Of a stretch of DNA of 64,000 nt, positions 13,462 to 27,332 are shown piece by piece. The stretch lies in the IMG/VR virus record IMGVR_UViG_3300028832_000145, positions 1,305-65,304 of that record; one strand, 5' to 3'. Source of the DNA: a virus (Duplodnaviria > Caudoviricetes). Position 1 is the first letter of the stretch, and every line of letters begins with the position of its first letter. Position numbers and translations under genes: made by a program. The notes under the pieces were generated by a model. The model searched no databases. It was given only the letters and a program-made list of their open reading frames with translations, and had not been told where the DNA came from.

Positions 13462-15285
13462 CTACTCTACGCTACCAGTGTAGACCTTCCACTCGTCGTC
13501 GGTCTCACTCCACTGATAGATGTGTTCGCCGTCCAGCACGTCGCCGGTGTACTCGGCCCAGGCGTTGTCGGTATAGATGTAGTACTTACCATTCTCGTAG
13601 GTGACATCGTCGGGGGCTGTGCCTACGGTGATGTCAACGGTAGGAGCGATAATCATATCCTCTGTCGGGTCGGCGGGCAGGGTGCTCACCTTCTCCACGG
13701 GACCGTCCTCACTCAGCAGACCGTCAAACGAGATAAGCATGCCGTCGGTCGGGTTGGCGGGCAGGGATGTAATCAGCGTAACGGGGTTAGCGGCATCGCT
13801 CATGTTCTTGTCTACAATCTCGTCGTTCGGGCCAAACAGCAGACTGGTGTGTCCGCCAAGCTTCAGGGCACCTGCCTCGATGTAGATGTAACGGCTGGCC
13901 TCGCGGGCATCGTTACCGGCCTTCTTCAGGTCAATCTCATACTCCTTGGAGTTACCGCTGATGTTGTGGTAGTACTTGGCCTTCTGGATGGGGATAACAA
14001 CCATGAAGTTCTTGTAGCCGAGGTCATCAAGGGCAGGAGCATGTACGATGTGCCATGTGCCGAAGTTGCTCACCAGGTCGCGTACTACGATGCCGTAGTC
14101 GGTCTTGTGGTGCTTGTACTCTACGGTGTGGTGCAGAATCTCGGGCATGTTCTCCAGCTCGGCAATCTTGTTCATGCCGCAATAGACGTAAGCCTCTTTC
14201 GACTTGCCAAGGCCAGTGCCCATAACCTTACCGATGGCCGAAATATGCTCCCACTTGAACTTACCATCCATACCAATCGTGTTGGTAAGCTGACGAAGAA
14301 CGCCGTTCATGGTGTAGACATATTCCTCGTTGCCGTCCTTGGTGCGCATGATGAACTTACCTTGTGCCATGATCCACAGGCTGTACTCCTGCTTCTTCTT
14401 GAAGTTACGCAGTGCCTGTGCCTTGATGTCGGCAAGTCCCCAGCTGGTCTTCTTGATAACCTCACGCTCCTTGTCGGTAATGAGGATATTAAACTCCATT
14501 TTCTGGAGATAGACGGTTGTCGGGCGGGGCTGGCTGTTGTCAGGCTGCACAATCATCTGGCTCTCGGAAGCGGCTACAGACGTGATGACCATTTCCGTTC
14601 CGGCAGGAATGGCAGGTGCGGTGTAGTCACGCAGGTACTCACTCTTCTGAGTGTCAACCTTGGTAATACCGTTGATAGGACGGCAGGTAATCTTCTCTTC
14701 GTCGTTAGAGACAACAAACAGCACCAGCGGACCACCATCCTTCTTCGACTGACTGCCGTTCTCGTAGCCGTTCACACCCTTCACTACGATGGTGCTCGAT
14801 ACACCCAGCAGACTCAGGTTACCGCTACAGTTCGATTCCGTCAGGATAATCTTCTCACCGGCGGCAATGTCATCAATGACCGTCAGCTTCAGGTCTTCCT
14901 CACCGATGCGGAAGTCGGTAATCTCGTAGTCGTGACCGCCTACGGTGCGCTGCATGGCAATCGTCTGCGCGTGGTTCAGAAGAACATAGTCATCAGCCTC
15001 AAACTCCACAATGTCGGGGTCATACTGGTCTTCCAGCAGCTTGGCACGGCGAAGCTGGGTAGCAGATGCCTGAGTGCCCGGCAGAGACTGACCGGCACCC
15101 TTGCCGTCAGGACTCTTCAGGTCGTTGGTCTCAGGATTCACTGGGTCAGGATTGGAAGGGTCGGGGTCACCTACGGCACCCTCGGCAAGGCATACGCCTG
15201 CGCCACCCGTCAATACTGCCATCACTACGAACATCAGACTGACTACCAGCTGATGTTTCTTAATAAAAGCAACTAACTTTTTCAT
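13462..15285 (-). CDS. Major capsid protein with hydrophobic N-terminal leader and duplicated C-terminal decoration domain
   Basis: 607 aa after scaffold; core motifs (QPRPTTVYLQK, GVLRQL, SNFGTWHIVH..LD) resemble SU10/N4-type HK97-fold capsids. Confidence 0.75.
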   Translation of the reverse strand: MKKLVAFIKKHQLVVSLMFVVMAVLTGGAGVCLAEGAVGDPDPSNPDPVNPETNDLKSPDGKGAGQSLPGTQASATQLRRAKLLEDQYDPDIVEFEADDYVLLNHAQTIAMQRTVGGHDYEITDFRIGEEDLKLTVIDDIAAGEKIILTESNCSGNLSLLGVSSTIVVKGVNGYENGSQSKKDGGPLVLFVVSNDEEKITCRPINGITKVDTQKSEYLRDYTAPAIPAGTEMVITSVAASESQMIVQPDNSQPRPTTVYLQKMEFNILITDKEREVIKKTSWGLADIKAQALRNFKKKQEYSLWIMAQGKFIMRTKDGNEEYVYTMNGVLRQLTNTIGMDGKFKWEHISAIGKVMGTGLGKSKEAYVYCGMNKIAELENMPEILHHTVEYKHHKTDYGIVVRDLVSNFGTWHIVHAPALDDLGYKNFMVVIPIQKAKYYHNISGNSKEYEIDLKKAGNDAREASRYIYIEAGALKLGGHTSLLFGPNDEIVDKNMSDAANPVTLITSLPANPTDGMLISFDGLLSEDGPVEKVSTLPADPTEDMIIAPTVDITVGTAPDDVTYENGKYYIYTDNAWAEYTGDVLDGEHIYQWSETDDEWKVYTGSVE

Positions 15286-15303
15286 ACGTTTTTTAATTGT
15301 TGG

Positions 15304-15468
15304 TTAATATCGTGTTAATTTTCCTCTCCGTATCTGTGTGGCTGATGCCTGCGTACCTGTCAAGTTCTGACCAGCATAGCCGCCAGGACTTCTTAGGTCG
15401 CTCTTTGTCGGGTCTACGGGGTCGCGCTTTCTTGGCGACGGGTCCATCACTGCAGCACTATAGTCCAT
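15304..15468 (-). CDS. Unannotated 54-aa paralogue of the capsid N-terminal arm
   Basis: MDYSAAVMDPSPRKRDPVDPTKSDLRSPGGYAGQNLTGTQASATQIRRGKLTRY; 25 of 37 aligned columns identical to capsid DPVNPETNDLKSPDGKGAGQSLPGTQASATQLRRAKL, with many synonymous codon differences. Confidence 0.75.
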   Translation of the reverse strand: MDYSAAVMDPSPRKRDPVDPTKSDLRSPGGYAGQNLTGTQASATQIRRGKLTRY

Positions 15469-15480
15469 TATGACAATTAT

Positions 15481-16347
15481 TTAGTCCATAAGTTCCTTAC
15501 CCCAGTCGGCAAAGCCGCCTTCCTTCTTCGGCTTCTTCTCGCCGCGTCCGGCTCCACCTGTGCCCTTTGAGGGAGGCAGACCGGTTCCAAAGTCCTTCAG
15601 GCCGTTTTCCACCTTCTCGTTAAGAGCTGTTGCGCGTGCCTTTTCGGTGGCAGCGGCAATGTCGTTGTCGTAGTTCTCGGCTTTCAAGATGGCCTCCCAA
15701 ACTTCCTTGCTGACGATACCGCGAGAGGCTGCGCCAAAGATGCCGTCGCTGATAGGCTCACCGTCCTCTCCAGTCTCGCCAAACATCTTCTTGACAAGGG
15801 CAACAACATCTTCGTTGCTCAGTCCTTTCTCGTCCTGTACCTGTTTCAGCGCATTGAAGGACTCCTGCATGTTAGCACCTATCTCTTTCTTGGTGTCCTC
15901 GTCGGCCTTAGTGGCGGCGGCTGTCGCCTCCTGATTCTTGATAAGGGCCTCGCCCATCTTCTTACCAAACTCCGGATCGTTGGCCAGCTCACGAATATCC
16001 ATGTCGGGGCCGATGTTTTCTGCCAGATAGGTAAACGGGTTCTCGCCTTCCTTTGCTGCCAGCACCAGTCCGGCAAGCAACGGCGCTTTGTCGAAGGCCT
16101 CACCCAGCAGCCGATTGTCTTCACGATACTTCTCCAGCTCGTCAAGATTCGCGTTTGCCTGTGTGTAAAAGGCGTCCTCGTCATCGAGGTTCATGTCCGG
16201 GTGCGCCTTGCTGTAGCGGTCGCGGTATCGGTCACGCGCCGTCGGCTCGGTTGACGCCGTTCCTGCAGCTTCTCCTGCGGGTACAGCCGGTGTAGTGGCC
16301 TCGCCGTTCGGCGGGGTCTCTGCGTTAACTTTCTTCTTCTCTGCCAT
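15481..16347 (-). CDS. Capsid scaffolding protein
   Basis: Acidic helical 288 aa directly upstream of capsid; start moved to MAEKKK at 16347. Confidence 0.6.
   Translation of the reverse strand: MAEKKKVNAETPPNGEATTPAVPAGEAAGTASTEPTARDRYRDRYSKAHPDMNLDDEDAFYTQANANLDELEKYREDNRLLGEAFDKAPLLAGLVLAAKEGENPFTYLAENIGPDMDIRELANDPEFGKKMGEALIKNQEATAAATKADEDTKKEIGANMQESFNALKQVQDEKGLSNEDVVALVKKMFGETGEDGEPISDGIFGAASRGIVSKEVWEAILKAENYDNDIAAATEKARATALNEKVENGLKDFGTGLPPSKGTGGAGRGEKKPKKEGGFADWGKELMD
16291..16320 (+). repeat. Dispersed coding hairpin repeat, copy 4 (scaffold)
   Basis: TGTAGTGG-CCTCGCC-GTTC-GGCGGGG-TCTC; compensatory C-G pair in the stem. Confidence 0.55.
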
Positions 16348-16394
16348 AACTGTTATGTTTATGTTTTGTTTGCCGTCGTTGGCTGGATTCGCCA

Positions 16395-24137: not shown

Positions 24138-26444
24138 CTAAAGGTCTGCTTCTGTGCCGGCTCTTGCTGCCGACAATCCTCCAGTTGATTCTTTTATCCA
24201 CTGAGGTAGTGGCATCTTCAGGCTTACATACAAGCCGATACCCGTTGACATCACAATATCGTCATGGTTGTTCTTGCCTTCTGAGTTACCCATTGTGCCG
24301 TCTTCCTTACGCTCGTATATCATCAGCTCGTCAAACGCCTGTTTGTCAGGTTCCACATAAAGGGCATCCTCCACATACGCCTTGTAGCAGTCTATCACCA
24401 GCTCCTTTGTCACGGTGTTGGTGTGGAAACCGTAGATGTTCGTTACCTTCTGCGTCACCTTGTCAACCTCGGTGGCACGGATATACAGGTTAGGATAGTA
24501 GTCTGCTATCTCGTCGATGATGGTTCCGAAGTGGTCACCCTCTTCATCCAGTCGCTGCTTGCGGGTGTCGGCAGTGTTCTTCTCTATTACCAGCTTCGCG
24601 TCGCCGTATAAGTGCGCAAGCTGCGCTGCTTTCCATGCCAGCAGGTCAAAGCGCATGTGACCGCGCCAACGTGCCACCACCTGCGGCTTTCCATACATAC
24701 CGGGCATCATGCCGAAGCGGTCTATCACCGTCATAACGGTAAAGTCCGATGTGCGGCTGCTACCGCCTATGTCGACGCTCACCACATAGCGGTCCGACAC
24801 TTTCAGGCCGTCCGGCATACGCCATATTCTCAGTACCTGTCCGTCATCCACCTTGTCAACGAGGCGGGCACGCTTAATGGCATTGATGCCTTTGTCGTAG
24901 TCTGACACGATGTTACCCACAAATATAGGCTGCTTCTCCATCGACATGCGCATAGCATCAACACAGTATTTGTCAAAGATAAGGTTACCAGCGGCCATGA
25001 AGCACTCCACATCGTCGGCGGGGAACTCCGTAGCCATGTAGCTGTGTGTGCGGTACTCGTTACGTTTGTTCCTGTACCAGTTGATAGCTTCCATCGAGGC
25101 ACCTTTCTGCCACTGTTGCCAGAAGTATTTGCCACTCTCGCGGTAGCCCTTCGGATTGTTCGGGTTATCTTTGTTCTCTATCAGCCACTCGGCAAACTCC
25201 CTCTCCGCTGCACGATACGCCTTGATGGTCTCCTTTGCTTTCAGCATCTGTGCCTCACCCTTTGCCGCCGTGCCCTCGCTATTGAGCGAGGTCTTCTTAG
25301 TAGCCCTCAGCGCCGCTGCAAACGCTTTCCAGCCACCTTCCATCAGCTCGTCGCGGTATAACTCAATTTCATAGTACGCAACAAACAGCGGCTCCCATGC
25401 GCTCGGTATGTCGGGATTCTTCGCCTCTTGATACATATTGTAGAAGAAGTCGCCGACAGTCCTGCCCGACGATTCCATCACTATCATGGTGTCCGGGCGC
25501 TTACCTACCGTACCATTGATAGATGACAGCACACCCTCCGGCTTCTTCTGCTCCGTCTCTTTCCAGTACGCCACCTCTGACAGATGTGCCATCTTAAGGT
25601 TAGAGCTTCGGCTGGCATCGTAGTTCTCGTATGACACTACCGAGGTCACGTTACCTCTCACCTCTTCGCCTGCAGTGGTCTTCACCACAAAGTCGGTGGT
25701 GCTGCCCTTGAAAGGCGCACTCTTCAGACGGCGACCTTTCAGGCCGACACTCCAGCCGGGCTGATGATCCAGCGCAAGGTCGTACATCGCGCGGATACGG
25801 ATTGATGCTGCCGTCTGGTGGGCCATAATGGCCATGTTCCACCGCTGATGCTTGAAGTCCTGCATCCACTTACCATACAGCTGCGTCTCGGTGGAACCGC
25901 CGAACTGACGCGCCTTTGGCAAAACAATACGGATGGGCCTGCGTTCAAGCCTCATCTTCTCCTGTAGGGCAAGTATCTTGCGCTGGCCGTAGTTAAGGAC
26001 GAAAGGTATCAAGGTGCCCTCTTCCTTATCCACAATCTTGTATATCATGGCAAAGGCAAACGCAGGGTCTTCCTCTGCCCTCATCTTGAACAAGGCACAG
26101 ACAACGTCCTCAAAGGTCTCGTCGTTGAACTCCCAGCCCAGTTCGTCCTCAATGTATTTCCTGATACTGCCGCGTTTCAGTACCTTTTTCAGAAAGATGT
26201 TATGCTCTACGATGCGCTCCGGCATATACTGAACCCTGATGGGGCAGTCCGGAATCTTCACCTTCTTTCGGGGACCAGGGGCGCCGCGTCCGGTAATAGG
26301 GTTGAAGCCGTCAAACATTTCATGGTTGCGACGCTCGTTCTCTTTGACAAGCGCCTCTACCGTCGGCTCACCGTTCCACCATCCCGTCGCTGCTGCCTCG
26401 GTTTTCCCTGATGGCATATCAACCTTTCCACCGTCCATAGGCAA
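24138..26444 (-). CDS. terL: Terminase large subunit
   Basis: PKARQFGGST Walker A, AHLSEVAYW Walker B, MIVMESSG, nuclease motifs VSVDIGG..SDFTV and NHDDIVM. Confidence 0.9.
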   Translation of the reverse strand: MPMDGGKVDMPSGKTEAAATGWWNGEPTVEALVKENERRNHEMFDGFNPITGRGAPGPRKKVKIPDCPIRVQYMPERIVEHNIFLKKVLKRGSIRKYIEDELGWEFNDETFEDVVCALFKMRAEEDPAFAFAMIYKIVDKEEGTLIPFVLNYGQRKILALQEKMRLERRPIRIVLPKARQFGGSTETQLYGKWMQDFKHQRWNMAIMAHQTAASIRIRAMYDLALDHQPGWSVGLKGRRLKSAPFKGSTTDFVVKTTAGEEVRGNVTSVVSYENYDASRSSNLKMAHLSEVAYWKETEQKKPEGVLSSINGTVGKRPDTMIVMESSGRTVGDFFYNMYQEAKNPDIPSAWEPLFVAYYEIELYRDELMEGGWKAFAAALRATKKTSLNSEGTAAKGEAQMLKAKETIKAYRAAEREFAEWLIENKDNPNNPKGYRESGKYFWQQWQKGASMEAINWYRNKRNEYRTHSYMATEFPADDVECFMAAGNLIFDKYCVDAMRMSMEKQPIFVGNIVSDYDKGINAIKRARLVDKVDDGQVLRIWRMPDGLKVSDRYVVSVDIGGSSRTSDFTVMTVIDRFGMMPGMYGKPQVVARWRGHMRFDLLAWKAAQLAHLYGDAKLVIEKNTADTRKQRLDEEGDHFGTIIDEIADYYPNLYIRATEVDKVTQKVTNIYGFHTNTVTKELVIDCYKAYVEDALYVEPDKQAFDELMIYERKEDGTMGNSEGKNNHDDIVMSTGIGLYVSLKMPLPQWIKESTGGLSAARAGTEADL
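25261..25297 (+). repeat. Dispersed coding hairpin repeat, copy 5 (TerL)
   Basis: TTTGCCGCCGTGC-CCTCGCT-ATTG-AGCGAGG-TCTTC; encodes KTSLNSEGTAAK. Confidence 0.9.
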
Positions 26445-26925
26445 GCCCCATCAATACACAATAGGTGTGAATACTCCAGTTGATGTGTGGTATCAGCACG
26501 CCCACCAGCGCAAACGGCAGCATCCTCTTGCAGAACGTCCAGTATGTTGTTGTGCCACAACGACACAACGCCCCCCACTTTACACCGATGATAGCAAACA
26601 ACACGCCGCTGAATCCCATTGTCGCCGCTGCTGCCGCAGTCCCCTCGCTATTGAGCGAGGTAATCATCTCCCACGCCCCCGGCAGCACCGGTAGCCACGA
26701 CGCAAGAAACGCGATAGCTACCGATACCGCCAAGTACAGGCGCTTTGACATTAGCCAAAGCACAAACAGATTCCCGCACAAATGCCAGAAGTTTGCATGA
26801 CACACTATCCACAGCACATGCTCCATGATAGTTCCGTCTTCTCTATAACCCACCTTGACACCCAGCGCCCACACCAGCACCAGCACGATGGTGACAGCCG
26901 TCTTCTCTATCAGCAACCACTTCAT
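26419..26925 (-). CDS. Rhomboid-family intramembrane serine protease
   Basis: HANFWHLCGN (HxxxxHxxxN), GFSG catalytic Ser motif, distal His in WSIHTYC, several TM helices; start at 26925 overlaps the upstream stop. Confidence 0.8.
   Translation of the reverse strand: MKWLLIEKTAVTIVLVLVWALGVKVGYREDGTIMEHVLWIVCHANFWHLCGNLFVLWLMSKRLYLAVSVAIAFLASWLPVLPGAWEMITSLNSEGTAAAAATMGFSGVLFAIIGVKWGALCRCGTTTYWTFCKRMLPFALVGVLIPHINWSIHTYCVLMGLAYGRWKG
26630..26663 (+). repeat. Dispersed coding hairpin repeat, copy 6 (rhomboid)
   Basis: GCTGCCGCAGTCC-CCTCGCT-ATTG-AGCGAGG-TA; encodes TSLNSEGTAAAA just before GFSG. Confidence 0.9.
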
Positions 26926-27332
26926 ACACTCTTCCTTTTGCTTCTCTTCTGCCATATCTGACACATGCGCGTATGACCGATGTAGAACCTCGGTGCCGGT
27001 TGCAGGACGGCAAACTGCAGTACAAAGCTCAGGCTCTTACCGCAATAGGCGCTGTTCTGCCAAAGGCGTAGCACTGTCTCAAACAGGTCTTCATACATTT
27101 TCCTTTTCAAAGGCGAAAGCTTATCAATGGCGCTGCGGTCGCCTCTTGTCAGTGGCGATATATACTGATGCGCTCGTCTGGCATCTATATAGAACCTCGG
27201 TGCCGGATGCTCCACGACACGACGGAAAGCCTCGTCGTTACATCTGCACTCATAGCTGGCACTCACCTCCCGGAACACCTTCATGAGGTCTTCCTCCATC
27301 TCCTTTCTACAGTTAGTATGCTCCTTCATCAT
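26922..27332 (-). CDS. Hypothetical protein with internally repeated PAPRFYI motif, possible regulator
   Basis: HPAPRFYID and QPAPRFYIG; basic C-terminus; start moved to 27332. Confidence 0.6.
   Translation of the reverse strand: MMKEHTNCRKEMEEDLMKVFREVSASYECRCNDEAFRRVVEHPAPRFYIDARRAHQYISPLTRGDRSAIDKLSPLKRKMYEDLFETVLRLWQNSAYCGKSLSFVLQFAVLQPAPRFYIGHTRMCQIWQKRSKRKSV

Follow-up and report, generated by a model that had tools for sequence, protein, structure and literature searches.

Between the scaffolding and major capsid genes of a Prevotella-associated phage we identified a 54-codon gene, ORF54, whose product is a free-standing copy of the distal part of the N-terminal arm of the neighbouring capsid protein. 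Comparison with related loci shows that ORF54 is a genuine late gene, accessory and inherited vertically, in a podophage-like virus family associated with Prevotella. It almost certainly works as a protein, and we have moderate confidence that this protein is a dispensable assembly helper or a minor internal component of the head. We found no described family of stand-alone capsid-arm copies in Pfam, PHROGs, the Atlas or the literature that we searched. The stretch of DNA analysed here (the window) comprises 64 kb of a 65.3-kb IMG/VR record that is rated complete by CheckV.

The genes of interest lie on the minus strand in the order scaffolding-type gene, ORF54, capsid gene and SU10-type adaptor gene, with a P22-type portal gene diverging from the scaffold gene (Table 1). 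The structural model of the capsid protein matches 9in6 and 7qof, the capsid proteins of phages VP1 and crAss001 (Foldseek, E 1e-9 to 1e-7). In the window the scaffold stop codon lies 12 nt before the ATG of ORF54; in most relatives the stop and start codons overlap as ATGA. The direct repeat ATGGACTA, found unchanged in the 97% relative L060, resembles a local duplication and would have taken the place of this overlap. The scaffold gene, ORF54 and the capsid gene are all in one frame in the window, with a single TAA between each pair, a coincidence given the frame relations in relatives. An A-rich motif of the TAACC...ATTAAAAA type is found 10-25 nt upstream of the capsid ATG family-wide (L001-L056), whether the small ORF is present or not, and is probably a translation-initiation or late-promoter element. 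A scan for sigma-70 promoters and terminators detected nothing above shuffled expectation.

Table 1. Features of the scaffold-capsid region, with positions numbered from the first letter of the window.
Feature	Position	Strand	Description
Scaffolding-type protein gene	15481..16350	-	PHROG 22323, E 2e-21; position between portal and capsid
8-nt direct repeat ATGGACTA	15461..15489	-	Copies at the scaffold gene end (15482-15489) and the ORF54 start (15461-15468)
ORF54	15304..15468	-	ATG to TAA, 54 aa; basic paralog of the distal capsid N-arm, free-standing and without the leader
A-rich motif, TAACC...ATTAAAAA type	15289..15309	-	Extends across the stop codon of ORF54 and the 18-nt spacer that leads to the capsid ATG
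Major capsid protein gene	13462..15285	-	607 aa, SU10/crAss-type HK97 fold; Pfam PF17236 (SU10_MCP), E 7e-10
Capsid residues 1-35, Sec-signal-like leader	15181..15285	-	Basic n-region, hydrophobic stretch, Gly break, small-x-small end
Capsid residues 36-83, distal N-arm segment copied by ORF54	15037..15180	-	Acidic, Pro-rich; ends in the invariant core common to ORF54

The product of ORF54 has a mass of 5.9 kDa and a pI of about 10. In a single BLASTP comparison, it was identical to capsid residues 36-83 at 30 of 48 positions (E 1e-16). A sequence-only reading of this DNA had reported 25 identities in a 37-column core, and our recount agrees; the different codons that it had listed for a shared eight-residue stretch are exactly as quoted. 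At the DNA level, ORF54 and the capsid arm are about 75% identical. The longest exact tract that they have in common is 8 nt, on which ground we rejected ongoing gene conversion as the cause of their likeness in the window. Nor are the two copies the template and variable repeats of a diversity-generating retroelement (DGR), since the mismatches between them involve all four bases and about 25% of positions. An arm HMM scored the two copies at 96 and 97 bits, and found no third copy when all six frames of the window and of the complete 65.3-kb record were searched.

ORF54 begins within a few residues of the position at which the hydrophobic leader of the capsid protein ends, and stops three residues past the arm core. 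It had been described as lacking a transmembrane segment, and indeed no hydrophobic segment is present; homology to capsid residues 36-83, together with the absence of the leader, confirms that it is a stand-alone, leaderless copy of the arm. ORF54 has no match in Pfam or PHROGs and no usable match in the ESM Atlas. The HK97 body (P and A domains) is absent from ORF54, as judged by the lack of a Pfam or PHROG match and of a predicted fold, and is present in the neighbouring 607-aa protein. Thus, ORF54 resembles the N-arm of its own SU10_MCP-type, HK97-fold capsid protein in sequence, in the invariant core and in a short predicted helix, but differs from it in being a separate product with no leader, proximal arm helix or HK97 body, and in having changed from acidic to basic.

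Searches with the capsid protein yielded two IMG/VR relatives, followed by 13 viral loci, 41 metagenomic loci and one locus from a Prevotella MAG; three more loci were obtained by exact look-up. Of these, 37 distinct loci had enough upstream sequence to serve as the denominator. With the arm HMM, 31 of the 37, all from rumen or gut Prevotella-type phages, proved to have a small arm copy that lies between the scaffold and capsid genes and is oriented like them. The sense frame is open in every one of 27 distinct nucleotide versions, with each other frame open in at most 18, and each version has its own ATG. For eight phylogenetically independent pairs of small ORFs, dN/dS was 0.17 and pN/pS was 0.30 (bootstrap 0.24-0.36), at a dS of about 1.1. 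By comparison, dN/dS was 0.09 for the small ORFs of the most distant clade (type C, below) and 0.08 for the capsid arm itself. Between ORF and arm paralogs of the same genome, synonymous sites are saturated (pS 0.64-0.85). The small ORF of L060 differs from ORF54 at three bases, two of the changes being synonymous and one exchanging Ile and Met. Fifteen residues are invariant across 17 small-ORF sequences, and the small ORF is kept across capsid divergence down to 44% identity. This survey of the scaffold-capsid interval in relatives, with its dN/dS estimates, upholds the earlier suggestion that ORF54 is under selection at the protein level and is not a decaying duplicate.

These data bear on two explanations in which the peptide itself would not matter. 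A non-functional duplication remnant or recombination scar, open by chance, might be expected to be short and to have an evident origin in duplication, as ORF54 does. We give this scarcely any probability, since the frame is open in all of the diverged sequences, the ATG is conserved, dN/dS is far below 1 and the ORF has been retained over the full range of capsid divergence. It is also very improbable that the ORF serves only as a translational relay between the scaffold and capsid genes. The ATGA overlaps at the junction of the scaffold gene and the small ORF, and in several type B loci also at the junction of the small ORF and the capsid gene, would suit such a relay; however, it is the amino acids that are conserved, including the invariant residues, while synonymous sites are saturated, and the capsid leader motif is unchanged in relatives that lack the ORF. 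Both explanations are largely excluded by the selection data.

We also considered and rejected other ways of reading the same interval. An antisense ORF (15297..15473, plus strand) is not the real gene, since antisense frames are open in only 5-18 of the 27 sequences. Read-through into the capsid gene would have to pass two in-frame stops before the capsid ATG in L001 and four in L002. Read-through or frameshifting from the neighbouring genes is contradicted by frame relations that vary among loci and by the ORF's own conserved ATG. A long ribosomal hop would have to span a gap of about 285 nt, and is likewise at odds with that ATG.

A small-ORF profile retrieved only 12 proteins among 1.84 billion representatives, all of them small ORFs or capsid N-termini of this same family, and a tblastn search of the phage GenBank collection with the capsid protein gave no match. 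Gene callers annotated homologs in a few assemblies (P0001, P0122-P0125). They often pass over micro-proteins of this size; in L060, for instance, an intact homolog of ORF54 lies in a 195-nt gap (1306-1500) that has no annotated gene.

The small ORFs are of three types, whose distribution follows the capsid tree. Type A, found in the clade of the window, is 54-55 aa long. Type B (47-68 aa) has variable basic tails encoded by the A-rich leader of the capsid gene, into which the frame continues; at several of its loci the ORF runs through the motif as far as an overlap with the capsid ATG. Type C, in the most distant clade (capsid 44% identical), consists of the arm core joined to sequence copied from the final 20 or so residues of its own scaffold protein. 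This scaffold-tail copy is recognisable at the DNA level, its source being the scaffold gene of the same genome; it is absent from ORF54 of the window and occurs only in type C relatives (L014, L015 and others). At type C loci L015, L040, L045, L049 and L053, a GC-rich hairpin lies between the small ORF and the capsid gene. Its stems differ in sequence among loci with pairing kept, and it may be an attenuator or an RNA-stability element. In L015 there is an intergenic hairpin on both sides of the small ORF (2209-2268 and 2428-2500), one of them following the scaffold gene, so that the duplication included the hairpin. ORF54 arose by duplication at the junction of the two genes. The combination of arm core and scaffold-tail copy in type C, and the paired hairpins of L015, bear the mark of a tandem duplication that ran from the scaffold gene end into the beginning of the capsid gene, with later loss of the leader copy. 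The saturation of synonymous sites between paralogs of the same genome indicates that this duplication is old.

Sequence has occasionally passed between the two copies. In L001, the small ORF and the arm have a 29-nt identical tract, and this is the only genome with such a conversion tract. The capsid arms of L016, P0043 and P0046 carry a small-ORF-type patch that includes a one-codon deletion typical of small ORFs (L016 2591-2752). L016 is a Prevotella MAG contig (CAJOEC010000023.1) whose lineage has lost the small ORF; its patch suggests that the small gene had converted this part of the capsid gene before it was lost. Conversely, the small protein P0124 has a capsid-type patch.

The gene is absent from six sampled lineages (L061, the pair L008/L030, L016, L012 and L042). 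L061, with 89% capsid identity, has a clean 45-nt spacer in place of the small ORF, and L016 retains a deletion remnant. Since L061, L008/L030 and L016 are nested among carriers, their lack of the gene reflects loss; L012 and L042 are deep branches. The sequence-only reading had held that absence or frameshifting of the ORF in close relatives would count against a gene. Most relatives carry an open ORF, and to that extent its case for a gene stands; the clean absence from the 89% relative goes the other way. Because six lineages lack it, the gene is not needed for head assembly as such. We conclude that it is accessory, being selected where present but not indispensable.

A gene that is accessory and repeatedly lost, yet selected where present, could be an anti-defence decoy, the free arm peptide, produced along with the capsid protein, saturating or blinding a host immunity sensor of the capsid arm. 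Host systems that sense capsid proteins exist, namely CapRel, and Lit with the T4 Gol peptide. A decoy would also accord with the likeness of small ORF and arm clade by clade, and with the occasional gene conversion in both directions. However, selection on the small ORF is strongly purifying rather than diversifying, the core is invariant, and a fixed place within the head-assembly operon fits an assembly role more simply. We therefore regard a decoy as quite improbable.

The Sec-signal-like leader that ORF54 lacks is present in all 120 capsid homologs that we inspected, down to 44% identity, and is modelled by AF2 as a helix (residues 2-27). The window also encodes a rhomboid-family protein (26419-26964, minus strand; PF01694, 27.5 bits, above the cut-off), and a rhomboid gene is present in five of five related virus records tested, irrespective of the small ORF. 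Together, the sequences of the leader and the phage rhomboid indicate an unusual route of capsid maturation, which limits any analogy with textbook systems. ORF54 corresponds to the capsid arm as it would be once the leader had been removed. The literature that we searched contained nothing relevant on phage rhomboids or signal-peptide capsids, and no prohead protease family was found among the head-module proteins scanned.

Small ORFs and capsid arms have in common 17 alignment columns that never vary; the two groups differ in charge. At two columns, basic residues are present in 95% of small ORFs as against 0-9% of arms, and there is a similar tendency at further columns. The net charge of types A and B ranges from +1 to +7 and that of the arms from -3 to -11, with ORF54 at about +4 and the arm that it copies at about -8. 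Type C small ORFs, which have a poly-Lys stretch as well as the scaffold tail, are net acidic overall. By sequence, ORF54 is a charge-shifted rather than a faithful mimic of the arm, basic where the arm is neutral or acidic, and it may bind something other than the arm's partner. AF2, run with an alignment of 17 sequences, predicted no fold (pTM 0.16). The only helix, of 6 residues, matches one predicted in the capsid arm, and there is no helical oligomerisation domain. The arm is also disordered in the AF2 capsid model, and ORF54 is probably disordered as well.

A small, basic, apparently disordered product would suit a packaged internal peptide, with the arm core as a head-targeting tag and the basic peptide neutralising DNA or acidic arms in the procapsid. 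In phage T4, internal proteins carry a capsid targeting sequence, which has no relation to the capsid protein and which the prohead protease cleaves off. By analogy, a small protein could be guided to the inside of the prohead by a short segment at its N-terminus, and type C adds a poly-Lys stretch and the presumed capsid-binding tail of the scaffold. Whereas the T4 protease cleaves the tag, no such protease is recognised beside ORF54, nor is any targeting system. Moreover, the basic C-terminal tails of type B arise incidentally, where the frame runs into the A-rich capsid leader, and type C products are acidic overall. Packaging of this kind thus seems doubtful.

We favour instead a role for ORF54 as an assembly helper or minor head component, acting in trans during procapsid assembly. 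Judging from the ATGA overlap, its translation would be coupled to that of the scaffold gene. The invariant core would engage the surface on which the arm core docks, either on a neighbouring capsid subunit or at the interface of scaffold and capsid, and the basic residues would provide different electrostatics, for example by pairing with or neutralising acidic arms or DNA-facing surfaces. Since the core is invariant across clades with differing scaffold tails, it would more probably pair with something that is itself conserved, for instance the surface of the capsid body, than with the scaffold tail. In our analysis the most telling clue to an assembly role is the type C chimera, in which the arm core is joined to the C-terminal tail of the scaffold.

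The sequence-only reading had suggested assembly tuning and mimicry of the cleaved capsid terminus as candidate jobs. Its main proposal, a more restricted role within the head, would be that of a filler of the portal vertex or another special site, with few copies of ORF54 occupying the arm-docking sites that are left empty where the portal replaces a capsid pentamer. ORF54 does copy the arm, and there is a precedent in crAss001 gp57, a small auxiliary protein specific to the portal vertex, where it replaces the regular auxiliary protein (PMC10172136). Like ORF54 in this scenario, gp57 is a small accessory head protein of a Bacteroidota phage that acts at special sites; it is, however, a folded, disulfide-linked dimer unrelated to the capsid arm (PMC10172136). 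We consider a vertex filler distinctly improbable. Coupling to the abundant scaffold gene through the ATGA overlap would suggest high expression, and hence an amount of product beyond what a few vertex sites require; with its fixed basic substitutions, ORF54 would be a poor like-for-like fit; and the gene has been lost repeatedly.

Other phages use duplicated head-protein sequence in assembly. In phage T4, gp24 is a paralog of the capsid protein gp23 with a specialised role in head assembly. ORF54 would resemble gp24, and the SaPIbov5 protein Ccm, in being duplicated capsid sequence put to a specialised use in head assembly; both of these are full HK97-fold paralogs that enter the lattice, whereas ORF54 comprises 48 arm residues and cannot be a lattice subunit. 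Ccm is a capsid-protein paralog that modifies assembly (PMC8569155). Another parallel is found in phage 80alpha. There the capsid N-arm is gripped by the C-terminal tail of the scaffold, and a small protein with a copy of this tail is a competitor for the same site (PMC5644958). ORF54 resembles that protein, SaPI1 CpmB, in being a small copy of an interaction segment of a head protein that could compete at the interface of capsid arm and scaffold, and type C relatives are like CpmB in that the scaffold tail is literally duplicated in them. CpmB, which forms a helical dimer, copies the scaffold and is encoded by a parasite of the phage (PMC5644958). ORF54, by contrast, is phage-encoded, predicted to be disordered and copies the capsid arm, with no scaffold tail in the window. 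We think it unlikely that free, charge-shifted N-arm copies make up a general, convergent class of phage micro-proteins that act on the arm's partner, as regulators of the timing or proofreading of procapsid nucleation or as decoys against arm-sensing host immunity, here perhaps alongside removal of the capsid leader by the rhomboid.

Head assembly in tailed phages is thought to need no more than a portal, a scaffold, a capsid protein and, in some cases, a protease. A micro-protein that is under selection and duplicates an interaction arm of the capsid would add a new type of player. Natural pairs with and without the gene are available, in that the window or L060 can be set against the 89% relative L061, as is a natural scaffold-tail chimera; the partner of the distal arm is therefore directly testable. 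ORF54 also offers a handle on the odd, leader-bearing capsid proteins of the abundant Prevotella phages of the rumen and gut. These capsid proteins occur in two forms, of about 545-555 aa and about 600-612 aa. In the window, the extra C-terminal part (residues about 500-607; 13462-13800, minus strand) contains two similar repeats with Pro and Asp, has beta strands in the AF2 model, and is perhaps a surface decoration domain.
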